Shown piece after piece: positions 45,725 through 60,136 of a stretch of 64,000 bases of DNA. The position numbers were made by a program, and so were the translations under genes. The stretch lies in the NCBI RefSeq assembly GCF_016903815.1, contig NZ_CP069974.1. One strand, given 5' to 3'. The notes below the pieces were generated by a model. The model had not been told where the DNA came from, did not search any database, and saw only the letters and a program-made list of their open reading frames with translations. The DNA is from Escherichia coli (GTDB lineage: Bacteria; Pseudomonadota; Gammaproteobacteria; Enterobacterales; Enterobacteriaceae). Positions within the stretch are counted from its first letter, which is position 1. Each line of letters begins with the position of its first letter.

Positions 45725-46779
<1,055 letters not shown>

Positions 46780-46839
46780 CTAAATAAAAAAGAGTCAATA
46801 AGCAGGGATAACTTTGTGAAAAAACAGCTTCTTCTGAGG

Positions 46840-47045
46840 GCAATCTGTCACAGGGTTAAGGGCAATTTGTCACAGACAGGACTGTCATTTGAGGGTAATT
46901 TGTCACACTGAAAGGGCAATTTGTCACAACACCTTCTCTAGAACCAGCATGGATAAAGGCCTACAAGGCGCTCTAAAAAAGAAGATCTAAAAACTATAAA
47001 AAAAATAATTATAAAAATATCCCCGTGGATAAGTGGATAACCCCA
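46840..47045. other. ori2 (oriS) of RepFIA: four iterons, AT-rich stretch and two DnaA boxes
   Basis: Four direct repeats (GAGGGCAATCTGTCACAGG etc.) at 46840-46930, AT-rich region, GTGGATAAGTGGATAAC DnaA-box pair near 47023-47040. Confidence 0.8.
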
Positions 47046-47510
47046 AGGGAAGTTTTTTCAGGCATCGTGTGTAAGCAGAATATATAAGTGCTGTTCCCTG
47101 GTGCTTCCTCGCTCACTCGAGGGCTTCGCCCTGTCGCTCGACTGCGGCGAGCACTACTGGCTGTAAAAGGACAGACCACATCATGGTGCTGTGTTCATTA
47201 GGTTGTTCTGTCCATTGCTGACATAATCCGCTCCACTTCAACGTAACACCGCACGAAGATTTCTATTGTTCCTGAAGGCATATTCAAATCGTTTTCGTTA
47301 CCGCTTGCAGGCATCATGACAGAACACTACTTCCTATAAACGCTACACAGGCTCCTGAGATTAATAATGCGGATCTCTACGATAATGGGAGATTTTCCCG
47401 ACTGTTTCGTTCGCTTCTCAGTGGATAACAGCCAGCTTCTCTGTTTAACAGACAAAAACAGCATATCCACTCAGTTCCACATTTCCATATAAAGGCCAAG
47501 GCATTTATTC

Positions 47511-48317
47511 TCAGGATAATTGTTTCAGCATCGCAACCGCATCAGACTCCGGCATCGCAAACTGCACCCGGTGCCGGGCAGCCACATCCAGCGCAAAAAC
47601 CTTCGTGTAGACTTCCGTTGAACTGATGGACTTATGTCCCATCAGGCTTTGCAGAACTTTCAGCGGTATACCGGCATACAGCATGTGCATCGCATAGGAA
47701 TGGCGGAACGTATGTGGTGTGACCGGAACAGAGAACGTCACACCGTCAGCAGCAGCGGCGGCAACCGCCTCCCCAATCCAGGTCCTGACCGTTCTGTCCG
47801 TCACTTCCCAGATCCGCGCTTTCTCTGTCCTTCCTGTGCGACGGTTACGCCGCTCCATGGGTATTTTCAGTGTTGCCACCATCGTCTGCAGCTGGCTGAC
47901 GTACCAGGAGTCAGAGAGCGGAACCAGCCGGTGAGTCTGCTGACCGGCGGGCATTCTCCCCGCCGTCCTGGCAGCTTTTTCGGTCCGTTGTTTCAGGGTC
48001 GCAAGCTGCACAAACGGATACGGAGGCGCAAGCGAAAAATCCCCCCGCGTCAGCGCCAGTGCTTCATTAATGCGTGCTCCGGTGTTCCACAGTGTGGCCA
48101 GCAGCATCTTGCGGTGCAGATCCGGGACGTAATGGAGCAGGGCACTCACTTCCGGAGCCAGCAGATATTTTGGCAGTTCATCATGGACCATCGACATCTG
48201 GCGAAGTGCCAGAGCTGCCGGATAATCAATGGCAACAGGCAGCGATGCAGGCTGCCCGGCAGAATACACTGCCGGTACCATGACTGCAGACTGGCTGTGT
48301 ATAACGGAGCCTGACAT
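47511..48317 (-). CDS. resD: ResD (D protein) tyrosine site-specific recombinase/resolvase
   Basis: 268 aa with conserved R...HxxR...Y integrase motifs (HTFRHSYAMHM, Y near C-terminus); adjacent to ccdB. Confidence 0.85.
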   Translation of the reverse strand: MSGSVIHSQSAVMVPAVYSAGQPASLPVAIDYPAALALRQMSMVHDELPKYLLAPEVSALLHYVPDLHRKMLLATLWNTGARINEALALTRGDFSLAPPYPFVQLATLKQRTEKAARTAGRMPAGQQTHRLVPLSDSWYVSQLQTMVATLKIPMERRNRRTGRTEKARIWEVTDRTVRTWIGEAVAAAAADGVTFSVPVTPHTFRHSYAMHMLYAGIPLKVLQSLMGHKSISSTEVYTKVFALDVAARHRVQFAMPESDAVAMLKQLS

Positions 48318-48843
<526 letters not shown>

Positions 48844-49234
48844 AGCACACCTCTTTTTGACATACTTCGGGTATACATATCAGTATATATTCTTATGCCG
48901 CAAAAATCAGCGCGCAAATACGCATACTGCTATCTGGCTTTTAGTAAGCCTTATGTATTTTACCTTTCGTTATGTTAACCAATAAAAATTAAAATCTGAC
49001 TTATAAAAACAAAGCGTAATTACCGCATTCCCGTTTCGTATGGATCCGACTTTATTTGAATAAACGACTTTCCGGAAGTGTACAACGCTGAGAAAATCAT
49101 CATATCGCTGTTTTCCGCCCCTGCACGGCGCATCACAGGTCAGGGAAATAACACAACATATAGTGTCATCAGCAGCTGAATCCGGCACCACATGTTGTGC
49201 TTACAGGAAGTGGCGTTGTGTGGGGGGGAGAGGA

Positions 49235-49355
49235 AGATCCGTAACTGCCGGAAACCGGATCTCAGAAGAGAAAAAGAAGAGTTGTTGCAAGATAAGCACA
49301 AAAAATGGTGGTTTGTTGAGATATGGTAATTATTGCTCAGTGGGCAAAATTCAGA
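49235..49355 (+). repeat. island repeat R copy 1 (GATCCG-N13-CGGATC hairpin, purine-rich tract, mini-ORF)
   Basis: AGATCCGtaactgccggaaacCGGATCT then CAGAAGAGAAAAAGAAGAG...ATGGTGGTTTGTTGA...ATTATTGCT...GCAAAATT; homologous to the copies at 51190 and 57888. Confidence 0.6.
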
Positions 49356-49476
49356 ACAGAGTTAGCCTGAAATTGCAAAAAACAGGCCAGAAAAACTTTT
49401 TTCAGCTCATTTTCATCAACCGGCCTTAAAGGCTGCTTCGGATTTCCTAAATACAGTTTTACATAAGGAACATCGT

Positions 49477-49674
49477 ATGACTGTATTTCTCATGGCCGTT
49501 TTCTATGGCCTCTTAAAAACTGGCTCTCTCATTGCCCTACTTGTTGATGCCTATAAAGGCTGGACCTTGTTCTGGAAGAACTATGATCGACTCCCCCATA
49601 TCTACCGTTCGCAATGGCGATATCAGCGACGCTTCATTCTCAAAAGAATCTGGAAACGCATCAGAACCGGCTAA
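49477..49674 (+). CDS. small hydrophobic peptide (65 aa) with basic C-terminus
   Basis: MTVFLMAVFYGLLKTGSLIALLVDAYKGW... then RSQWRYQRRFILKRIWKRIRTG; downstream of repeat R1; coding status unverified. Confidence 0.3.
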   Translation: MTVFLMAVFYGLLKTGSLIALLVDAYKGWTLFWKNYDRLPHIYRSQWRYQRRFILKRIWKRIRTG

Positions 49675-49955
49675 GCCGGTTCTTCCAGCAGCATCCCCAA
49701 CCCGGCCAGCCAGCACAGACAGCACCAGGTGGTGAACACCATTCTGGTCTCGCCGGATTTCCACTTACGGATGGTGCGCTCGTCCACATCTAGCCGGTTG
49801 GCCAGCTGGATATCTGTGAGCGGGATCAGCGCCCGGACCACGCTGACTTCACTGGCTGAAGGTGCCATCCAGCTCTCGCCCGAGCACAGTGTTTCAGGGT
49901 TAAATTTCTCTAGTTCTATCAGCCCCTGAACCTGACGGGCATTTTCTGCCTTCAT
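49671..49955 (-). CDS. small HTH-containing protein with hydrophobic C-terminal tail
   Basis: LTDIQLANRLDVDERTIRKWKSGE HTH-like segment; C-terminal VFTTWCCLCWLAGLGMLL; 20 bp downstream of the DUF3800-like gene. Confidence 0.45.
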   Translation of the reverse strand: MKAENARQVQGLIELEKFNPETLCSGESWMAPSASEVSVVRALIPLTDIQLANRLDVDERTIRKWKSGETRMVFTTWCCLCWLAGLGMLLEEPA

Positions 49956-49974
49956 ATGCGGTTAACCTTTCTGA

Positions 49975-51108
49975 TCAGGATTGCGACACACTTTGTACAC
50001 GATGGGCAAGACGGCGCGTTTCTTCCACGGCCCTGAGTTCATTTGCTTTTTCTATCATTTCTGCGGTTGGTTCAGAAAGTTTTTCAAAAAACTCCTTAAA
50101 CCTCTTTGCAACTGACTGCAGAGAAACACTGTCAGTTCTCGCTGTTTTAAGATTGGTGTAGACGAGGCGGGAAAGGGGTTTGGTCAGTTCCTTCCGTTCC
50201 ATGTATCGTTTGAAGATCCAGAGATAAATATCAACCAGTTCCAGCCCGGCACTCATCGTTCCCGACTGGAAGACAAGCGGTTTTGCTGGCATGTTCTTCA
50301 TATCCATGACAGGCAAACCCGGCCCCAGTGCCCACGGCTGTTCGCGGATCTGGTAGTAAAACTCGTTCAACTCCCGCTGGGTGGTGTTGAACTGTGACTG
50401 CTGGTCAACAATGATATCTGCTTTCCGGTTCGGTGCCCCCAGACGAGAGCAGATCCCGTGCAAAACGGACTGAAAACCAATCATATTGGGCATGATCTGC
50501 AACTTTTCCTTATTGGTTTTGCAGTTGTACCCCAGCTCATCAAAGTTGACCATCGCCCAAGATAGGGCATCGGTAATGAGTTCAACTGAACGGGCATCAC
50601 CCAGAGAGTGAACGCGCTGAAGCAGCACTCCACAAACCTCACTGAATAATGAGCAAGAACGTTCATCATGAGCCTCAAGACGGGCACGCCACGCTTTTTC
50701 AGCCAGCTCATCATCAAACAGATTAGACAGATTCAGCAGCAGGGGATAGCGCAGAGGGGTCCAGTAGGCACTCCAGGGCACAACCGGATTCAGTCCCTGA
50801 TCAAACACCTGGTCGAAGAACGAAATAATGGCGTGATCGCGCTTAACCACCTGCCAGATATCAAACCGTATCCGGTGATTTTTCTGCAGGACCAGCAGCG
50901 TATCCACAACTTCTGAAAGGCGGTGCACGCCCAGTTCCGCAGCGTGCAGGCGCTCCACGCCCAGAGTTTTGCGTAATGCGGCAAGATCCGCTTCAGCAAC
51001 CTTATCTAGGTCAGCCTCTGAGGACAGTACTCCGTAGGAGAGGATTGGCTGGGTTTTGTCAAAAAGGTTTCGGCCAGTCTGGCCTGTTTCATCCACATAA
51101 AAGTGCAT
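49975..51108 (-). CDS. DUF3800-like protein (377 aa)
   Basis: N-terminus MHFYVDETGQTG resembles the y-DESG signature I associate with DUF3800; family assignment by recall. Confidence 0.45.
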   Translation of the reverse strand: MHFYVDETGQTGRNLFDKTQPILSYGVLSSEADLDKVAEADLAALRKTLGVERLHAAELGVHRLSEVVDTLLVLQKNHRIRFDIWQVVKRDHAIISFFDQVFDQGLNPVVPWSAYWTPLRYPLLLNLSNLFDDELAEKAWRARLEAHDERSCSLFSEVCGVLLQRVHSLGDARSVELITDALSWAMVNFDELGYNCKTNKEKLQIMPNMIGFQSVLHGICSRLGAPNRKADIIVDQQSQFNTTQRELNEFYYQIREQPWALGPGLPVMDMKNMPAKPLVFQSGTMSAGLELVDIYLWIFKRYMERKELTKPLSRLVYTNLKTARTDSVSLQSVAKRFKEFFEKLSEPTAEMIEKANELRAVEETRRLAHRVQSVSQS

Positions 51109-51189
51109 TCAGATATCCTTTTCAAGGCAGGAGGAAAAGAAACGGCATAATTCAAATCAATGTAAAACCTTCCTGTTGCCGGCTGCAAG

Positions 51190-51310
51190 TGATCCTCTTA
51201 AATGAGTTTTCGGATCTAAGGAAGAGAGAAGAGGGATTATTGTATGAATGGCACAAAAAGCGACGGATTGTTGCGGTGAATAGATTATTGCTTAGGAAGC
51301 AAAATTTATA
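51190..51310 (+). repeat. island repeat R copy 2
   Basis: GATCCtcttaaatgagttttcGGATC hairpin, AAGGAAGAGAGAAGAGGG tract, mini-ORF ATGAATGGCACAAAAAGCGACGGATTGTTGCGGTGA, ATTATTGCTTAGGAAGCAAAATTT. Confidence 0.6.
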
Positions 51311-51329
51311 GTAATTGATAACTCTAATG

Positions 51330-51360
51330 CAATTAAACAGCGACCCCATCAGGGGTCACC
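51330..51360 (-). terminator. putative terminator hairpin downstream of the 1039-aa gene
   Basis: GACCCC-ATCA-GGGGTC stem-loop at 51342-51357, followed on the minus strand by a T-rich stretch. Confidence 0.4.
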
Positions 51361-51370
51361 GTAATTTTGA

Positions 51371-54300
51371 TCAGCGATGTTCAAACCGCGCCACTGGAGT
51401 ATCAGTGATTTCCATCTCTATTTCCCAGAGCGTTTTCATCACACCTTCAAGTGGATCGTCGCTGCTGCGGTAGAAGGTATTGAAAAGGGTTCCATCCGGA
51501 TACCTGAACAGCCTGAGTTCACCAAAGGATTCAGCACTGACCATAAGCGAAAACTCCTGTTCGGAATTGAGGACAAGGTAAATAAGACAGTTATTGATCC
51601 TGAAGGGCAGAGAGCGGCTACCCCTGGCCGATACATCAACATGTATGCTAAACGCGTCATGCCTTTCCGGCTGATAGACCAGTTCCCTCAGTTCCTCGCT
51701 GAAGCGGGAACCATAGATCACCAGAATGTAGTTATTCTGATCAGCGGACCGTTGCGCGACTTCCATTAACAGCGTTTCGAGGTTATTGACCTCAATCGTT
51801 AATTTAGCCTGTGACTGCCACAGTACATAATGCAGTCTGCGGAGAATATTTCTGTTCACTTCTGATACCGAAGGGAAATCTCCGTAGTCAGTCTGATTAA
51901 GCTCTCTGGCAACATACTCTTTGGAAACACCAACAGGAATATATATCGCCAGCCAGTTGCGATCACATTCTGAATTTTGAGTAAACGTGAAGTATTTAAG
52001 CAGAACATCTTCAGACAATGCCCCAGGAAGTTCATTTGTAAGACGAGCATCAGTGTTTCTCAGTCGAGCCTGGTCTACTTCAGCAGCAACGATATCTGCC
52101 GTTTTACTACGACTGAATACATCTATGTATTTATCCAGAACATCATTAAAGAACACCACATTCGTTGCATAATCCGCTTCTGAAATGATATAACCTTCAT
52201 AGGGAACTGAAGGGTCTCGTTTCAGTCGTTTAAGAATAGAAATTATTCTGTCTTTACTGGAATAGGAAAACACCCCTCCAGCCAGGGCTTCATTAACACG
52301 CTGTGTAACCTGCTCCGCAGGCCTTGCGAGCTTTATAGCCAGCAAGGCAAACGCCCCGTAGAGACTCCCTAAATCTTCATATTCCCCTGTATACATACGC
52401 CCGGGAATGTAAGGCCTTTCATTATATGAGTTCATAACCTCAATGGTTTCTGATAACCCGCTGTACCAGCTTGTATTCGTATGCAGATTGCAGTGCTCAA
52501 TTCTCAGTATCATGTCAATGATATCGACAGAACGTCTGAATGCAGGCGTCAGCGTGTCATGTGTATCTCTATCTTCATATAATTCAGACATAATGAGATG
52601 ATTCACAAGATCGGCTAAGTCTATATTTTTTTGCGATTCAAAATGAGCAATAAGATACCCTGCCATTAACAACCGCAAATCGGATAAGGCATTTGCAAAC
52701 ATAATGGACAAAGCGGCATCTTTTTTATACTTGCTGCCCCTGAGTAACATATTCCACTGCGGTTCTGTCTCCTTCAGGGACAGATAATCCGGAGTCAGGA
52801 AGAAACTGTGCCAGCGGTACTCTTCCTCCCAGTAACGTGTAAACCGGCTCTGATTAAACCAGAGGCAGAGAACGTCGTGAGCATATCGCACGGAAGAGGC
52901 ATTATCGGCAACCACTGACGGAATAAGAAGCCTGGCGGTATTATGCAGATGATACATCAGGCGGCCAGTAGAATCTTCACTCCCGGGTTTGCCAGTGATC
53001 GTGGTCATACTCCAGCCTTCCCACAGTCCGATATACCCGCGGATAAGGGCCTGGTGAGTCAGCTCCTGGCTGGCCGAGAGGGGGCCCCCCAGTCCCGCTT
53101 TCCACTCGTTTAACACATGCCACACCCTGAAAAGCGAGAGTAAAAACTGTCTGAAATCGGTAAAACACGTGCTCTGTGTTTTTCTGTACACACGCAATGG
53201 AATGAGCATCGATTCACGGAAATATTCGCCTGAATATTCCGTTGATTTTACGGATTCACGAAAAAACTTTCTCAATTCATAATGGAATGAATCGCTGAAA
53301 GTATGGCTAAAACCTGATTCTTTTACTTCATCCAGATAATTTTTATCGACCTCGTAATTGTAACTTCTTTTGATAGAGGTATAGGTATCTGTTAATCGTT
53401 CAATCCCTGTTCTGAAGACGCTAATATTTTTATCGTTAAGCGCATCGTAAGCCTCACCAAAGAAATCAAAAGTAATATCATCCAGATCCCTTTTGTTCTC
53501 AGGGCGCCCTGTTACAATACAACGACGCAATAACCACCGCCACAATCCTGAAACAGGCTTGACATTTCTCGATGACAATAAAGTCAGTTCACCAGAACGA
53601 ACACCAAAGGAGGGCAGAATGATAATTTCCGCATCCTGCCCATCTACCGCCTCTAGCCTTCTCAGTAGGAATAAAAAAGGCCTTATATAAATATCAGTAA
53701 CAACATCACCTTTACTGATATTAGATTTAACATGAAGCATATCGTCTTTCTCAGAAATTGAGTAAGGCAGTATTTTAATATTACCGAGGTAATTTTGACC
53801 TACATGACCCCCCGGGTAACGCAGCCACGCCTGAATATATGCTTTTTGAATGTAGTCATCCACTATCTGAGATAAAAAAAACTTATTCATTAGTCGATCG
53901 CGTTTGCTCTCATCCAGGACATTCAGACTGGAGACGAAGAACCAGATAGACAGAATAATATTGAAAAGCATCCACACAAAAGCTGTTACGGCAAAAGAAG
54001 TATTAAGATATCCGTCACCTATAGATAACGTCATACCGCCCAGCACGACAAATGCAGCCAGTGAAAGACCACTCAGGCCCGCAAACATATATCCGGAATG
54101 AAGTTGATACGCGGACTGAATATGGATCCTTGCTGATTTCTTTTGAAATAAAACACTTATAAGCCCCACAACCAGCGGAAATACAATACCGATTATAGTC
54201 AACTGGCTACCCAGTAAATTAGACATCCAATCTGAAAGCTTGGTAATGCCCTTAAAATGCTGCACAGCGAAAGGTAGCAATACAGGGCGAAAATATTCGA

Positions 54301-54490
54301 CCACGCCAACAGCCCCGAAGGCTGCGGACCATAGAACCAGCATAGCCCGGACGTAATGGGTGGAGCAGGAAACAAGTATTCTCTCCACCGGGTTCCAGCG
54401 AAGTTTTTTGTAATCCCGGTTCGACTTCAGGCTCCGTCGGAGTTCAGCTCTCACCTGCCATGAGACACTTTTCAGAAGTTTTCCAAACAT
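51371..54490 (-). CDS. large membrane-anchored protein of unknown function (1039 aa, four N-terminal TM segments)
   Basis: Uninterrupted 3.1-kb ORF in an AT-rich island; four hydrophobic segments within the first ~200 aa, ~840-aa soluble C-terminal region with no recognisable catalytic motif. Confidence 0.7.
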   Translation of the reverse strand: MFGKLLKSVSWQVRAELRRSLKSNRDYKKLRWNPVERILVSCSTHYVRAMLVLWSAAFGAVGVVEYFRPVLLPFAVQHFKGITKLSDWMSNLLGSQLTIIGIVFPLVVGLISVLFQKKSARIHIQSAYQLHSGYMFAGLSGLSLAAFVVLGGMTLSIGDGYLNTSFAVTAFVWMLFNIILSIWFFVSSLNVLDESKRDRLMNKFFLSQIVDDYIQKAYIQAWLRYPGGHVGQNYLGNIKILPYSISEKDDMLHVKSNISKGDVVTDIYIRPFLFLLRRLEAVDGQDAEIIILPSFGVRSGELTLLSSRNVKPVSGLWRWLLRRCIVTGRPENKRDLDDITFDFFGEAYDALNDKNISVFRTGIERLTDTYTSIKRSYNYEVDKNYLDEVKESGFSHTFSDSFHYELRKFFRESVKSTEYSGEYFRESMLIPLRVYRKTQSTCFTDFRQFLLSLFRVWHVLNEWKAGLGGPLSASQELTHQALIRGYIGLWEGWSMTTITGKPGSEDSTGRLMYHLHNTARLLIPSVVADNASSVRYAHDVLCLWFNQSRFTRYWEEEYRWHSFFLTPDYLSLKETEPQWNMLLRGSKYKKDAALSIMFANALSDLRLLMAGYLIAHFESQKNIDLADLVNHLIMSELYEDRDTHDTLTPAFRRSVDIIDMILRIEHCNLHTNTSWYSGLSETIEVMNSYNERPYIPGRMYTGEYEDLGSLYGAFALLAIKLARPAEQVTQRVNEALAGGVFSYSSKDRIISILKRLKRDPSVPYEGYIISEADYATNVVFFNDVLDKYIDVFSRSKTADIVAAEVDQARLRNTDARLTNELPGALSEDVLLKYFTFTQNSECDRNWLAIYIPVGVSKEYVARELNQTDYGDFPSVSEVNRNILRRLHYVLWQSQAKLTIEVNNLETLLMEVAQRSADQNNYILVIYGSRFSEELRELVYQPERHDAFSIHVDVSARGSRSLPFRINNCLIYLVLNSEQEFSLMVSAESFGELRLFRYPDGTLFNTFYRSSDDPLEGVMKTLWEIEMEITDTPVARFEHR

Positions 54491-54796
54491 AGATATCCTG
54501 CGTATTACATAAGAAATTTTATGAATAATAAGCGGTAGGAACCTTTTTTTCTCTGGAAAATGTCACCCGATACCCTTCATACAGGCTTTGTCATCCTAAA
54601 ATCCGGTTTAACCTTTTTTCGGATCTCCGATAAAAAAGAAAGAAATAGAGATATGCATAAACATATGCCTGGCATCTACATATGCTACCGCTATACATAT
54701 GCCACACATCTGCCTATACTAAACATATGCACACACCCGGTGCTTTGAATATTCCGGATATGTTTCACATATCCATATGCTCGGGAGAGAAAGAAC

Positions 54797-55027
54797 ATGA
54801 GAACCGTATCGATATTTAAAAATGGCAACAACCGCGCCATCCGTCTGCCTCGTGATCTGGATTTTGAGGGGGTGAGCGAGCTCGAGATCGTCCGGGAAGG
54901 GGACAGCATCATCCTGCGCCCCGTCCGGCCAACCTGGGGATCATTCCTAGAGTACGAAAAAGCCGATCCAGATTTTATGGCGGAGCGCGAGGATGTTGTC
55001 AGCGACGAAGGGCGATTTAACCTGTGA
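54797..55027 (+). CDS. vapB: VapB/MvpA antitoxin (AbrB/SpoVT fold)
   Basis: 76 aa MRTVSIFKNGNNRAIRLPRDLDFEGVSELEIVREGDSIILRPV... matches VapB/MvpA-type antitoxins. Confidence 0.85.
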   Translation: MRTVSIFKNGNNRAIRLPRDLDFEGVSELEIVREGDSIILRPVRPTWGSFLEYEKADPDFMAEREDVVSDEGRFNL

Positions 55028-55440
55028 ACAAGACTTATATGCTTGATACCTGTATCTGCTCGTTCATCATGCGTGAACAGCCAGAAGCCGTCCTGAAGCG
55101 TCTGGAGCAGGCGGTGCTACGCGGCCACCGTATAGTGGTCTCGGCCATCACCTACTCTGAAATGCGCTTCGGGGCTACCGGCCCAAAGGCCTCACCACGT
55201 CACGTCCAACTGGTCGATGAATTCTGCGCCCGCCTCGATGCCATCCTGCCCTGGGATCGCGCCGCAGTAGACGCCACCACGAAGATTAAAGTGGCACTGC
55301 GGCTGGCCGGGACGCCGATCGGCCCGAACGACACGGCGATTGCCGGGCACGCCATCGCCGCCGGGGCGATACTGGTAACGAATAATACAAGAGAATTTGA
55401 GCGAGTGCCTGACCTGGTGCTGGAAGACTGGGTGAAGTAA
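55024..55440 (+). CDS. vapC: VapC/MvpT PIN-domain toxin (start GTG 55024 or ATG 55039)
   Basis: MLDTCICSFIMRE...VVSAITYSEMRFG...LVTNNTREFERVPDLVLEDW with PIN acidic residues; overlaps vapB stop. Confidence 0.85.
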   Translation: MNKTYMLDTCICSFIMREQPEAVLKRLEQAVLRGHRIVVSAITYSEMRFGATGPKASPRHVQLVDEFCARLDAILPWDRAAVDATTKIKVALRLAGTPIGPNDTAIAGHAIAAGAILVTNNTREFERVPDLVLEDWVK

Positions 55441-55601
55441 GACACTCTTTTCAAAGTCAGGAGATAAGGGCACCAAGAAACAGCCCGTATACGGGCTGTT
55501 TTAACAGATATCTACAGTAAGCGGTCCTAAACTGTAGGGTATCTTCGAAGATCAGACTATCAGGGAGCTAAAGCCTATCTTCCGGCGGCAAAAACAGTGG
55601 C

Positions 55602-57740
55602 TCAAGCGATACGGGCAACCGAGCTCTGGTTTGCTGCCGGTGGCAGGGCGATGAGCTTGTCACATTCCATAATCACGTACTCCGGGATGAGATCGAATCT
55701 GGACGGATCTAGTTGACAGATGAACTCATTTTCAATGTGGTACGTTTCGTTAACGAATTTTCGTATTACCGGATGGTCCTGATCCAGTTCCAGTAAACGG
55801 AATACCTGCAGTTTTTCATAGCCGTTACGACAGCGACGGTACAGGTTTTTTATTTCATCTGGGCTGCTGACGAGAGCCTGAAGTCGCGGGTAATCAAAAC
55901 TGTCCACATACTCCCGGATATCCCGCAAGGCCTGCTGAATTTTCTCAGGAGCCATTTTGGGATAGCCCGAGCCCGCAGCGGCAGGCTCGCGATAATCCAG
56001 CGGGGCGACGCGTCGATGGAATAGATTGGATAGAAGCTGATAAGCATCACCACGTTCGTCAACGATTTCAAAGTAGCGACGAAGATAGATGAGCTTAATG
56101 ATCTCCTCACAGTCTGCTGACGCGGTGATGGATTTGCAGATCTGCATGAATGTCATGATATCGCCGTCGTTAACAGGTAATTCTTCTATGACTCCAGCAG
56201 ACAGGCGCAGGCAGGAGGCGGTCACCTGATTACTGAACAACCTTCTGACTGACTTCAGCGTGTCAATCACAGGCTCCACGTCATGCGTCAGCATAAGTAC
56301 AGTCCGGTTCTTCAGGCATTCACCACTTGCACGTCTGAACAGCATTTCAAGAATGGCAAACTTCTTGTTTTTATCAAAAGAAGATATGGGATCATCAAGG
56401 ATAATCAGTCCCGGGTTTTTTGACAGGCATTCATACATGAATAACACAATCGCAAAGGCGTTCCGTTCTCCATAGCTGAGATGCTGGCTACCGCCGCTGA
56501 CGTACCCGTCAAAATCTATGTGTCGTAGCCTGAGTTTTCTCTGCTCTCCCTCGCCGGCTATATCCACCCTGTATTTATAGCCTGCATAAGTGAGGAAATT
56601 ATTGATGTTTGTTTTGTGCTGTGCGATCAGCCGGATCATGCTGTCCCGGTGCCGGTTAATTTTTCCCTGCAGCGGTCCGGCAAGGTTTATCAGGTCCATA
56701 AGGGCCGCGTTCAGTCTGTCGGTGATCCCCTGCATGAGTTCGGATTGCAGATCAGGGAAGAACTGCAGGTCAATCAACCTGGCAGTGAGCACCTCCCGAA
56801 CGTTCTGCTGTTCCTGCAGGCTGAAAACATTCAGGCCTCTCAGCGCAGTGAGTTTCTCTGTCAGCGTATCGGTCTGGCGTTTCAACGCCACTAGGTACTC
56901 GATATGTTCGGCTTCCGGACCGTTCTGAAGCATAGTAATGGCCAGAAGGCGTTCTCTGGCGCTCTCCGTCAGGTAATTACCGAGGTTTTCCACCAGTCTG
57001 ATGATAGCGGTCAGGTTTTTAATGGTGGATTTATCGTATTCCTCTCTGACTTGGCGAATTTGTGCTTCCTTTCCCGTGATATCACCGGTACAGAACGGAC
57101 AGCAGCCATCCGAAAGGGGCGAAAACTCGAGTCCCTTTGTCTGCCAGTCAATCCATTCCACGCGGCGTTCACTGCGGATGTAGGGTTGATAGTTCTCAAG
57201 ACCAGCCGGAATGTGGTGTATTTTATTTCCGCCTGACAGACCTCTCATGCCGGTTGAAGAACGTGAAATCCCGGAACTGGTTGATTTGAAAGCATTACTG
57301 AGTTCCTGTAGATGGTCTATCAGAGAGTTCAGCTCAGTGTGATCCGTGAAAACAGCCCGGATCTTTTGCGTCATTTCTTCTATTTCACGCTCTCTTTCCG
57401 CATGGGCTTGATTGCGGATAAGAATATTAAAGCTGTCACTGATGAGCTCGTCCGGTTGGAACGTAAACTGACTGACGTACTCCTCGTTGAAGCACATCAC
57501 GTCCCCAATCCCGTCAGCACCGATGACAATGGGCCCGGTGCTATCGGGGTTTTCTCCGCGCAGCCGGAAGGGCATCAGTGCCTGTAGTCCCTGAATGTCG
57601 TCCCGCGCCGCACAGCTTATGGCCCGTGACAGCGTACTTTTTCCAGTACCATTTGGCGCAAACTTAATGTTCAGTTTATCGGCAGTGAGGGTGATATGTG
57701 CTCGTACGATGTTATTGCAGTGGCGTATTTCAATGTCCAT
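55602..57740 (-). CDS. RloC/Rad50-like ABC ATPase with CxxC hook insert (candidate anticodon nuclease)
   Basis: Walker A APNGTGKST at the N-terminus, long coiled-coil-like insert with CCPFCTGD (CxxC), signature-like LSYGER, Walker B LIILDDP, C-terminal LRRYFEI...H region reminiscent of PrrC/RloC. Confidence 0.45.
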   Translation of the reverse strand: MDIEIRHCNNIVRAHITLTADKLNIKFAPNGTGKSTLSRAISCAARDDIQGLQALMPFRLRGENPDSTGPIVIGADGIGDVMCFNEEYVSQFTFQPDELISDSFNILIRNQAHAEREREIEEMTQKIRAVFTDHTELNSLIDHLQELSNAFKSTSSGISRSSTGMRGLSGGNKIHHIPAGLENYQPYIRSERRVEWIDWQTKGLEFSPLSDGCCPFCTGDITGKEAQIRQVREEYDKSTIKNLTAIIRLVENLGNYLTESARERLLAITMLQNGPEAEHIEYLVALKRQTDTLTEKLTALRGLNVFSLQEQQNVREVLTARLIDLQFFPDLQSELMQGITDRLNAALMDLINLAGPLQGKINRHRDSMIRLIAQHKTNINNFLTYAGYKYRVDIAGEGEQRKLRLRHIDFDGYVSGGSQHLSYGERNAFAIVLFMYECLSKNPGLIILDDPISSFDKNKKFAILEMLFRRASGECLKNRTVLMLTHDVEPVIDTLKSVRRLFSNQVTASCLRLSAGVIEELPVNDGDIMTFMQICKSITASADCEEIIKLIYLRRYFEIVDERGDAYQLLSNLFHRRVAPLDYREPAAAGSGYPKMAPEKIQQALRDIREYVDSFDYPRLQALVSSPDEIKNLYRRCRNGYEKLQVFRLLELDQDHPVIRKFVNETYHIENEFICQLDPSRFDLIPEYVIMECDKLIALPPAANQSSVARIA

Positions 57741-57887: not shown

Positions 57888-58020
57888 CGATCCGACTTTT
57901 ACTTTTTTCGGATCTCTGGAGAGGGGAAGAAGGATTTGTGCTGATGATGCAATACTAATGATATATTTTGAACTTAATTGCATTATTGCTTATCTGGCAT
58001 TAATAACTGAAATACTTTGC
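57888..58020 (+). repeat. island repeat R copy 3
   Basis: GATCCGActtttacttttttCGGATC hairpin, CTGGAGAGGGGAAGAAGG tract, mini-ORF ATGATGCAATACTAA, ATTATTGCTTATCTGGCA...GCATAATTA. Confidence 0.6.
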
Positions 58021-58204: not shown

Positions 58205-59200
58205 ATGGCGACCACAGTAATAGCTGCCTTTAACGAATTTATGAAAGATACCGTGAATCTCAAAAAGGCAGATACCGATGACGCGCGTGCAAGTCGCGAC
58301 TGGCTTATCGGTAAGATGAATGATTTTGAGAAGGACGATAAATTTCCGGTGAGTTTTCCAGCGATCCATATTGCCTTTGGCTCCTTTGCCAGAAGAACCA
58401 AAATCCGTCCGCTTGATGATATCGATCTGATGTTTGGCTTAACCGGGCAAGGTGCCACCTATACCATCCTGAGTGACCGGATAACTGTAACCTCCTCCGG
58501 AGAGGGGTCACGTCTGCACAGTTACCGCCATTCCGGAGCTGACACCGTCTGCTCCGTCAGAATTCTGAATGCCTTTAAAAACCGCCTGCAGGACATTGCC
58601 CAGTACGCCCAGGCTGATATCAGGCGTAACCAGGAAGCTGTCACGCTGAAACTGGTCAGCAAGGACTGGAATTTTGACATCGTCCCCTGCTTTATTACCA
58701 GCGAAGATGCCTTTGGACGGACTTACTACCTGATCCCCGATGGCAACGGCCACTGGAAGTTTACCGACCCCCGTAAAGACAGGGACAGAGTCACTACTAT
58801 CAATGTGCAGAATAACGGCAATGTGCTCAATGTCATCAGAGCAGTCAAATACTGGCAGCGGCGACCGACGATGCCATCCATGAGTTCCTACCTGCTGGAA
58901 ACGCTGATTCTGGACTATTACGCTGGCAGGACATCCTGCTCATCGTTTGTTGACATGGAGCTGGAAGCGCTTTTCCGCCACCTTGGTCAATCCGTGCGGT
59001 ACTCTGTCAACGATCCCAAAGGCATACAGGGTGATATCAACTCACTTTCAGCCGAGGCACGTAAGGCGATATCGGACAGATGTTATCTCGATGCGCAAAA
59101 GGTATCGGAGGCGAGATGGTTTGAAAATAATAAAGAGTATGAAAAATCCATCAATAAATGGCGCGATGTGTTCGGGCCATTCTTTCCTGTTTACGGGTGA
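58205..59200 (+). CDS. CD-NTase/SMODS-like nucleotidyltransferase (CBASS-type cyclase candidate)
   Basis: GS-x11-DID nucleotidyltransferase motif FGSFARRTKIRPLDDIDLMF and downstream third Asp KDWNFDIVPCF; 331 aa. Confidence 0.6.
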   Translation: MATTVIAAFNEFMKDTVNLKKADTDDARASRDWLIGKMNDFEKDDKFPVSFPAIHIAFGSFARRTKIRPLDDIDLMFGLTGQGATYTILSDRITVTSSGEGSRLHSYRHSGADTVCSVRILNAFKNRLQDIAQYAQADIRRNQEAVTLKLVSKDWNFDIVPCFITSEDAFGRTYYLIPDGNGHWKFTDPRKDRDRVTTINVQNNGNVLNVIRAVKYWQRRPTMPSMSSYLLETLILDYYAGRTSCSSFVDMELEALFRHLGQSVRYSVNDPKGIQGDINSLSAEARKAISDRCYLDAQKVSEARWFENNKEYEKSINKWRDVFGPFFPVYG

Positions 59201-59203
59201 ATC

Positions 59204-60136
59204 ATGAATGCCATTTACACAAACCAGTCGACCAGAGAAAACATGGATTTACTGTATGCGCAGGCCCGTGTCTACGACAGGGTAAAAAACTGGAACAGAC
59301 TGAATTTTCTCTTCAGCATCATCGTACCGCTCCTGCTTTCTTTCGTTACCGTATACAACCGGAGCCGGGAATTTGTCGATTCAGAGTTGTTGTCTTCGCT
59401 GTTGGGGTTATATGGACTCCTGGTGCTTACCTTTAACATTGTTATCAGTGGACACATCTCGGCTCTGCGCAGGAAGGCAGCCTCAATCCAGGAAATGTAC
59501 GACTGCCGGGTACTTGGCATCCGGCGTAATGAACTGAAGGTGGAGGAGATCCCACGGGATGACATCATCCGGGAAGCTGCATATTTTAGAGACAGCCCGG
59601 AAAAAGCACGAAAGCGATTTGGCGAAGAGGGGTGGTACGTCAGTAAGGTGTATGACGCGCCGCAGGCCGTAATGGCGCTCCTTTGCCACGGAAAAAATCT
59701 CGGCTGGGACAAATCGCTCAGGGAGGTTCTGCACGTATTTTATCTTTCCGCTTTTATTGTCTCGCCTGTCGCGATGCTTGTTTACGGCATCGTCATGAAA
59801 TCCGGGCTGAATGAGATCCTCTTCTATGTGGTGTTCACACTGCCGGTCATCCGCTATTTCTTGCTTCAGTTTCTGGATAATCGCAGCAGTATGAAAAGAA
59901 GCGAGAAGCTGAAAAAGTACGTTGAGAAGGAATTATCCGGCATAAGGGTGTCCGGAAGGGCAGAAGAAGAGCAACTGGCTTATACGCTCCGGAATATCCA
60001 AGATGAGATGTTTACCTACCGGGCCTCATGTCCGCCCGTACCCAACGGTATTCAGCTGATAATGAAGCCCAAAAATGAACGAATTTATGTTGATTACTTT
60101 GAAACAAATCTGAAGGAGCTGCACCTTCAGAAGTAA
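59204..60136 (+). CDS. 4-TM effector-like membrane protein (2TM-loop-2TM) coupled to the nucleotidyltransferase
   Basis: Starts 4 bp after the NTase stop; hydrophobic segments around residues 30-50, 60-85, 198-222 and 228-248. Confidence 0.55.
   Translation: MNAIYTNQSTRENMDLLYAQARVYDRVKNWNRLNFLFSIIVPLLLSFVTVYNRSREFVDSELLSSLLGLYGLLVLTFNIVISGHISALRRKAASIQEMYDCRVLGIRRNELKVEEIPRDDIIREAAYFRDSPEKARKRFGEEGWYVSKVYDAPQAVMALLCHGKNLGWDKSLREVLHVFYLSAFIVSPVAMLVYGIVMKSGLNEILFYVVFTLPVIRYFLLQFLDNRSSMKRSEKLKKYVEKELSGIRVSGRAEEEQLAYTLRNIQDEMFTYRASCPPVPNGIQLIMKPKNERIYVDYFETNLKELHLQK

Follow-up and report, generated by a model that had tools for sequence, protein, structure and literature searches.

Repressors of the KorC family, which belong to IncP, IncL and IncU plasmids, hold down plasmid genes that are harmful to the host (kil genes), a role that, like the intolerance of the plasmid to their loss, is known only from pOXA-48 and RK2. 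In the IncP-1 plasmids RK2 and R772 the gene belongs to the klcA-klcB-korC/kleA arrangement, and both the RA3 and the IncP KorC proteins regulate multiple operons. In the IncL plasmid pOXA-48 korC is the second gene of the orf24-korC operon, with a predicted operator inside the promoter of this operon; transposon insertions in it are not tolerated, and its silencing by CRISPR interference destabilises the plasmid. The DUF3800 proteins have been published as predicted RNase H-fold nucleases, namely as the effector of type VII retrons and as accessory proteins of Cas12a2 and type VI-F systems, and in the literature this domain has been linked to eleven different RNA motifs as well as to retrons and Cas12a2 loci. 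Both families meet in a three-gene block of an Escherichia coli plasmid (contig NZ_CP069974.1), which was analysed as a stretch of 64,000 nucleotides (nt), hereafter the window. The block consists of a DUF3800 gene encoding 377 amino acids (aa) (49975–51108, minus strand), a gene of a 94-aa KorC-family helix-turn-helix (HTH) repressor (49671–49955, minus strand), and a convergent gene of a 65-aa small membrane protein (49477–49674, plus strand). In our estimate the chances are about even that in this block a candidate defence nuclease that acts alone shares its transcript with a kil-kor-like pair, much as in the IncP klcB-korC/kleA arrangement.

The three open reading frames (ORFs) were found in the ORF list exactly where an initial inspection of the letters alone (the sequence-only reading) had placed them, and on identical plasmids in RefSeq all three are annotated as genes, encoding WP_000545983.1 (DUF3800) and the hypothetical proteins WP_000642771.1 and WP_000215657.1. 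The window is a portion of an F-type plasmid, with repE, resD, ccdB and ccdA within 45982–48843. In 201 plasmid records the 2.1-kb block finds a match of 99% or better, and in 311 records at least 80% of it is covered.

By sequence and profile comparison the 94-aa protein is a member of the KorC repressor family. Alignment with hhalign matched it to the KorC of IncL pOXA-48 with a probability of 98.2% (E 5.7e-14) and to the annotated KorC of IncP-1 R772 with a probability of 97.4% (E 1.1e-11, 71/94 residues aligned), and these alignments take in the W..P motif, the helix-turn-helix, and the WCxLCxxAGLG tail. The tblastn search connects the IncL KorC both with annotated IncP korC genes and with the family of the 94-aa protein, whose relatives widely carry the NCBI name "korC". 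The Pfam HTH_3 match is weak by itself (E=0.23), matches in PDB are limited to weak ones of XRE type, and phage records contain hardly any KorC-like proteins (three Yersinia phages, 30% identity). The HTH-like segment noticed in the sequence-only reading is confirmed by the profile comparison with KorC repressors (97-98% probability), and the hydrophobicity of the Cys/Trp tail by its hydropathy (19-residue Kyte-Doolittle maximum 1.85), while the statement that nothing in the module can be functionally assigned does not hold for this protein. The Cys/Trp tail is, judged from these alignments, a family hallmark, and it probably forms the last helix of the domain and not a membrane anchor because it is common to the IncL and IncP KorC proteins.

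The korC gene has its own Shine-Dalgarno sequence and begins 19 nt downstream of the DUF3800 gene, which agrees with the order described in the sequence-only reading and corrects its spacing of 20 bp. Across the korC loci the spacing to the upstream gene ranges from a 4-nt overlap (overlaps of 1–4 nt) to this 19-nt gap, which is too small for a promoter. Since no space is left for a promoter of its own, korC is likely translated from the transcript of the upstream gene, and the tight spacing suggests functional coupling with that gene.

When the korC loci are compared, the conserved unit is korC together with the convergent small gene, standing behind swappable genes that encode proteins of 340–421 aa. 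DUF3800 is the upstream gene not only in the window but also in Buttiauxella and on an IncHI1B/IncFIB plasmid of K. pneumoniae, and the K. pneumoniae trio is 80% (DUF3800), 64% (KorC), and 40% (small protein) identical to that of the window. The same position is taken by a DUF4238 gene (375 aa) on many plasmids from E. coli, Klebsiella, Morganella, and Serratia, in Pectobacterium, Hafnia, and Citrobacter by a gene of a 340–345-aa protein with no Pfam match, and in Pantoea by a gene of a 421-aa protein. On comparison no relatedness was found among these swappable upstream proteins or between them and KlcB. In two loci (L060 and L085) the korC/small-ORF pair is intact despite disruption of the upstream gene by an insertion sequence (IS). 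With its unrelated upstream genes the pair looks like a portable unit of control or addiction.

The small ORF, as the pattern of its substitutions indicates, is a real gene under purifying selection. An intact 65–68-aa homologue convergent to korC is present in 35 of the 36 korC loci, the remaining one being cut by an IS, and the two genes overlap by 4 or 11 nt; the window gene overlaps the korC stop by 4 nt, in line with the convergent overlap at the 3′ end proposed earlier. The median ratio of nonsynonymous to synonymous substitution rates (dN/dS) in 12 diverse pairs was 0.24 for the small ORF and 0.27 for korC, with dS of about 1, that is, near saturation, and every other frame across the small ORF carries stops. 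The hydrophobic and basic character noticed in the sequence-only reading is borne out by an N-terminal transmembrane (TM) segment, a net charge of +10.6, and a pI of 11. The conserved tail, WxxF..N(Y/F)D.LP.I....WR(Y/F).RR(F/Y)...RI..R, is Arg/Trp-rich with 11 Lys/Arg and 9 aromatic residues. Database relatives fall into 64 protein clusters, of which the named ones all belong to Enterobacterales, and none of the 64 carries a functional name.

A palindrome stands in front of the small gene. Of the 36 korC loci, 31 contain a single copy of its perfect 13–17-bp form (G)CGGCC-TTAAA-GGCCG(C), exact GGCCTTAAAGGCC, and the distance to the small-ORF ATG downstream is about 45 nt in every case; zero copies were found in the collected loci without korC. 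The window counterpart CGGCC-TTAAA-GGCTG (49421–49435, 42–56 nt upstream of the ATG) is a candidate KorC operator, and in its 6-5-6 layout and its placement it agrees with the verified KorC operators of R772 and with that read in pOXA-48. In R772 (L153, 2067–4646) the 17-bp operators TAGGGC-AAAAT-G(C/T)CCTA lie 56–72 nt upstream of the klcA and kleA starts. A search for the palindrome in viral contigs returned 64 exact matches, none of them near korC or the small ORF, and these were set aside as chance matches.

A second feature concerns the small-gene messenger. In the window a hairpin (repeat I3; 49449–49488, plus strand) forms around the small-ORF Shine-Dalgarno sequence and start codon (−13 kcal/mol, z −2.1), and in the second sequence subtype a different, stronger hairpin also sequesters the start (−23 and −32 kcal/mol; z −4.0 and −3.6). 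Such a hidden ribosome-binding site suggests that the small protein is harmful once made. At the other end of the gene a perfect 10-bp inverted repeat (repeat I10; 49663–49683) spans both overlapping stop codons, with folding z-scores of −3.4 on the plus strand and −4.2 on the minus strand, and may serve as a bidirectional hairpin or terminator.

Taken beside the described systems, the locus shares with IncP-1 the same repressor family, the terminal position of korC, presumably within one operon in the window as well, after a gene of about 400 aa (klcB of R772, 402 aa) with a gap of 16 nt in R772 and 19 nt in the window, and a small gene beside korC with a 6-5-6 palindrome about 40–70 nt upstream of its ATG. 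It differs in that the upstream genes are unrelated (DUF3800 in the window, KlcA/KlcB in IncP-1), the window small gene is convergent and encodes a membrane protein unrelated to KleA, and the operator in the present korC loci is CGGCC-TTAAA-GGCCG instead of TAGGGC-AAAAT-GCCCTA, with none in the promoter of the window operon itself. With pOXA-48 it shares a homologous KorC and a korC that would likewise be promoter-distal in a two-gene operon; for pOXA-48 the indispensability of korC for plasmid maintenance has been established by experiment. In pOXA-48, unlike the window, the upstream gene is the JAB/RadC-like orf24, no small convergent ORF is present, and the operator is in the operon's own promoter.

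According to these comparisons, KorC would be made from the transcript of the cargo gene and would most likely bind the 6-5-6 palindrome in the small-gene promoter, thereby silencing the small gene, for which the mRNA hairpin would be a second safeguard. As korC relies on the upstream promoter, the host would then stay well only as long as the cargo gene is transcribed. The DUF3800 protein in this arrangement would be a stand-alone RNase H2-like nuclease and a candidate effector against phages or mobile genetic elements, acting independently of partners.

Several observations weigh against this interpretation. The window palindrome is one mismatch away from the perfect form, and even the perfect form differs in sequence from the pOXA-48 and R772 operators, so that the likeness is one of layout. 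No KorC-type palindrome is found upstream of the DUF3800 gene, and consequently the autoregulation of the IncP and IncL systems is not reproduced. A scan of the region for the sigma-70 consensus revealed no promoter, and the tight spacing of korC falls short of proof of coupling. The KorC tail is hydrophobic enough to allow membrane association. Structure prediction with AlphaFold2 for a KorC-linker-small-protein fusion was uninformative on interaction (pLDDT 51, pTM 0.23). Finally, none of the three proteins has a matching model in PADLOC-DB v2, nor does the neighbouring 1039-aa protein described below.

For the DUF3800 protein itself a hidden Markov model search returned a full-model match to Pfam DUF3800 (PF12686; E=1.5e-5) that covers model positions 1–148 of 149 across residues 2–301, in agreement with the N-terminal likeness to this family noticed in the sequence-only reading. 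The family search gave 958 matches, the family being large and well conserved, and orthologues of 45–55% identity span Gamma-, Beta-, and Alphaproteobacteria; no sequence homologues are present in PDB. Residues D6, E7, H55, D103, D235, Q237, and D293 are invariant in 36 homologues, and D83, D91, and H92 are nearly so. D6-E7 make up the N-terminal DE motif, and the C-terminal motif is E290-L-V-D293, with E in place of the Q of QxxD. The D-E pair stands at the end of strand 1, where it presumably mirrors D7-E8 of archaeal RNase HII. The fold is confidently predicted as RNase H2-like, and the protein is probably a metal-dependent nuclease; the modelled fold and the invariant acidic residues agree with the published RNase H-fold prediction for DUF3800.

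With the DUF3800 proteins of type VII retrons, Cas12a2, and type VI-F loci it shares the Pfam family, the predicted RNase H-like fold, and the N-terminal DE motif, and with those of type VII retrons also the E for Q substitution in QxxD (ELVD in the window, residues 290–293). The window version differs in standing alone with 377 aa and with orthologues that have no fixed partner; its surroundings contain neither a reverse transcriptase or msr/msd nor a CRISPR array or a TPR domain. For the reverse transcriptase this holds for the annotation of about 9 kb to each side of the gene, and an Rfam scan of 48000–55500 by E-value detected none of the eleven DUF3800-associated RNA motifs and no other Rfam family. 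Having neither an adjacent reverse transcriptase nor an msr/msd match in Rfam, the locus does not have the make-up of a type VII retron. In Legionella pneumophila a strain-specific DUF3800 gene was essential in a transposon screen (bioRxiv 10.1101/2020.10.01.323287), which could mean that DUF3800 genes, or genes 3′ of them, have antitoxin-like roles.

The company of this protein in the korC-upstream slot is informative as well. A single DUF4238 protein from a P2 hotspot strongly protects against T7 (Rousset 2022), so one of the families found in this slot has a proven single-gene defence member. The plasmid DUF4238 (375 aa) occupies the same position as DUF3800, is of similar size, and is likewise a candidate for single-protein defence, although it is unrelated to DUF3800 and the defence demonstrated is that of the P2-encoded member alone. 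It is on the family associations together with this company that the DUF3800 protein is considered as a candidate defence effector. The DUF4238 gene is also seen in a widespread block (L051, L055-L074; e.g., L051 5522–9774) composed of the pEK499_p136 HEPN nuclease gene, genes of 259-aa and 530-aa proteins, DUF4238, korC, and the small ORF. In PADLOC no match was obtained for the alternative upstream partners or for the 259-aa, 530-aa, and DUF4238 proteins tested. In Pectobacterium, Hafnia, and Citrobacter (L063 5873–7282, L081 4890–6269) a gene of a 459–469-aa RES-domain protein follows the unit of the 340–345-aa gene, korC, and the small ORF.

Whether the three genes form a fixed system is answered by the neighbourhoods. 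All ORFs within 5 kb of 49 DUF3800 orthologues in species-representative genomes were clustered, and no conserved neighbour emerged, the clustering returning only artefacts of overlapping frames; korC and the small ORF stand beside DUF3800 in the identical copy and in Buttiauxella only. In pEC958 (133788–135464; L075 43789–45465) the slot beside ccdA holds a DUF3800 gene of 79% identity, which is followed by an unrelated convergent gene of a 170-aa protein with an N-terminal TM segment in place of korC and the small ORF, and no KorC-like gene is present on the whole of pEC958. In Serratia DUF3800 also has other neighbours. Judged from this distribution, the trio is not a fixed system, and the co-conservation of three genes anticipated in the sequence-only reading fails, since DUF3800 is alone in about 45 genomes and the korC/small-ORF pair follows unrelated genes; its idea of an effector with a small regulator and membrane partner was reasonable as such but does not survive as a co-conserved trio. 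In pEC958 an ISEc23 element is inserted directly upstream of DUF3800. The pEC958 hypothetical gene EC958_A0140, scored "essential" by transposon-directed insertion-site sequencing, was taken up as a lead, but neither the paper nor its supplement allowed its assignment to a gene; this result cannot concern korC because pEC958 has no KorC-like gene.

These data bear directly on an integrated three-gene defence system, in which DUF3800 would act as a nuclease for sensing or effect under the regulation of the HTH protein, the small protein would provide a second effector of the abortive-infection kind, and none of the three could be spared. Although its sequences have diverged, the trio has stayed together on IncFIA plasmids of E. 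coli, in Buttiauxella, and on an IncHI1B/IncFIB plasmid of K. pneumoniae, it is located in an island of defence and toxin-antitoxin (TA) genes, and DUF3800 is a defence-associated nuclease family. Against this stand the approximately 45 orthologues without both partners and the other neighbours in pEC958 and Serratia, the occurrence of the KorC/small-gene pair behind unrelated upstream genes with a KorC subtype independent of the partner, the P2-encoded DUF4238 functioning as a single gene, and the absence of a PADLOC match. We regard such a system as unlikely.

A 28-bp element of the form AGATCCG-N14-CGGATCT, with a polypyrimidine tract before each copy, occurs four times in the window, upstream of four successive transcription units and always on the gene strand. 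The copy at 51190–51217 (minus strand), AGATCCGAAAACTCATTTAAGAGGATCA, marks the 5′ cassette boundary; the DUF3800 ATG is 108 nt downstream of its GATCCG start, the promoter region of the cassette probably follows this site, and the same site lies 108–109 nt upstream of DUF3800 in four further loci (L002, L003, L005, and L078). A variant copy at 49235–49262 (minus strand), AGATCCGGTTTCCGGCAGTTACGGATCT, marks the 3′ boundary about 390–420 nt upstream of ccdA, whereas the three other copies are 108–175 nt from their genes. Further copies at 54599–54626 and 57888–57915 (both minus strand) precede the gene of a 1039-aa protein and an AAA-ATPase gene, respectively. Each element contains two GATC (Dam) sites, and the RES-domain gene mentioned above carries a 28-bp site of its own.

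In all 38 unique copies from the collected loci the 14-nt spacer and the 28-bp geometry are invariant, while left and right halves appear in many combinations. A 61-nt query is matched by hundreds of records of the plasmid collection just to the middle of the spacer. The window and pEC958 become homologous at the polypyrimidine flank of the ccdA-proximal copy and remain so towards ccdA, and this copy coincides with the start of the pEC958 RepFIA, where rfsF sites were placed by the authors of that plasmid sequence (PMC4398462). Switches of gene sets at rfsF have been reported in published comparisons, and a gene of a ResD-like integrase adjoins the region of the 28-bp sites. Because of the invariant spacing, the shuffled halves, the loss of homology in mid-spacer, the RepFIA coincidence, and the adjacent ResD-type integrase, the elements read as putative rfsF-like tyrosine-recombinase sites, by which DUF3800, korC, and the small ORF (51217 to 49235) would be one cassette in an array. 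Some homology breakpoints fall outside the 28-bp sites. The likeness to F-plasmid rfsF/ResD includes 28-bp inverted-arm sites around a central region, an adjacent tyrosine recombinase gene, and the bounding of modules; the difference is the presence of several directly oriented sites along one island, and the likeness is drawn from layout. In Acinetobacter the pdif modules are likewise discrete gene modules bounded by 28-bp inverted-arm sites.

A more ambitious picture can be drawn from here, which we hold to be possible but doubtful. On enterobacterial plasmids, including the ST131 IncF ones and a Klebsiella IncHI1B/IncFIB one, cassettes with defence and TA genes would form an array like that of an integron and be shuffled by ResD-type recombinases at the 28-bp sites. 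The KorC/small-protein pair would be a portable toxin-repressor lock in it, and as korC would be transcribed solely by way of the cargo gene, in the window that of the stand-alone RNase H-like DUF3800 nuclease, cells that silence or delete the cargo would be poisoned. If true, this would be a new means of enforcing the retention and expression of costly immune genes.

The same elements can be read differently, with the KorC-like protein as an island-wide regulator that coordinates the cassette promoters via the 28-bp elements and the small protein having an unrelated role, e.g., in exclusion or membrane remodelling. The position of the four elements ahead of four successive transcription units in gene orientation and the multi-operon regulation by RA3 and IncP KorC would fit such a regulator. 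The elements, however, act like recombination sites with strict geometry and shuffled halves, their layout is unlike that of known KorC operators, and pEC958, where a KorC-like gene is absent, has one copy. Given this copy on a korC-less plasmid and the recombination-site behaviour, a role of the 28-bp element as KorC operator was set aside as less likely, and an island-wide regulator is in our opinion distinctly unlikely.

The hairpins invite a type I-like TA interpretation, in which a membrane toxin would be controlled by the 5′ hairpin and by antisense pairing with the korC 3′ end, the KorC protein being secondary. The convergence with a 4- or 11-nt overlap, the strong junction hairpin, and the ribosome-binding site sequestered in both subtypes would suit it, as would the hydrophobic and basic small protein. 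But the overlap of korC and the small ORF is very short, the small protein with its 65–68 aa and its long, conserved basic tail does not resemble a typical type I toxin, and a protein repressor with a suitable candidate operator adjoins the small gene, which makes this explanation improbable.

A type II TA system with the toxin first as in higBA and mqsRA, where the HTH protein would neutralise a DUF3800 toxin by direct binding, is the least probable of all, for although gene order and tight spacing, the weak likeness of the KorC HTH to COG2944/MqsA-type antitoxin HTHs, the indispensability of korC on pOXA-48, and the essential Legionella gene (which could reflect polarity on a downstream antitoxin) speak in its favour, partner-specific co-variation is absent, with an 82% identical KorC behind DUF4238 in Serratia and a 64% identical one behind DUF3800 in Klebsiella, and a DUF3800 that is solitary in most genomes and without KorC in pEC958 is hard to reconcile with an unneutralised toxin. 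This independence of KorC subtype and partner type argues against cognate toxin-antitoxin contact in general. The partner-specific KorC N-terminus to be expected of an antitoxin was looked for and rejected, the N-terminal 35 residues being homologous across partner types with subtypes mixed.

DUF3800, KorC, and rfsF/ResD each are of a known kind, and it is their combination that is a new version of the kil-kor theme; in the literature no description was found of the pair of KorC and small membrane protein, of its interchangeable candidate defence partners, or of its site-bounded cassette. Hundreds of sequenced clinical plasmids carry the cassette or its close variants, among them multiresistance plasmids of the IncFIA/FII type in E. 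coli and IncHI1B/IncFIB plasmids in K. pneumoniae. Should a harmful small protein be what KorC silences, the pair would be an unrecognised maintenance or addiction function and a possible target for plasmid curing, and such silencing could be the reason for which korC-type genes turn out to be indispensable in plasmid screens. As the slot holds DUF4238 with its proven anti-phage member, DUF3800, and two unknown families, it yields a short list of candidate single-gene defence proteins, and it may be a natural setting for learning the role of stand-alone DUF3800 nucleases. With the 28-bp sites there is, in turn, a concrete candidate mechanism behind the mosaicism for which this plasmid region is known.

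The remaining genes of the island agree with the location beside ccdAB and other defence-type modules that had been pointed out from the letters alone, since ccdAB, vapBC, an AAA ATPase, and a SMODS-like/S-4TM pair, all annotated, adjoin the block. The 1039-aa protein (51371–54490, minus strand), whose gene has its own 28-bp site upstream, contains several N-terminal TM helices and gave zero matches in Pfam, NCBIfam, PHROG, and PADLOC; close to a korC locus in Pantoea (L086, from 7520) there is a gene of a protein of equal length (1039 aa). Beyond it vapBC is located at 54797–55440 (plus strand) and the 712-aa AAA ATPase at 55602–57740 (minus strand), and the gene of a SMODS-like 331-aa protein with that of an S-4TM effector, a CBASS-like pair, occupies 58205–60136 (plus strand) and is followed by IS1.

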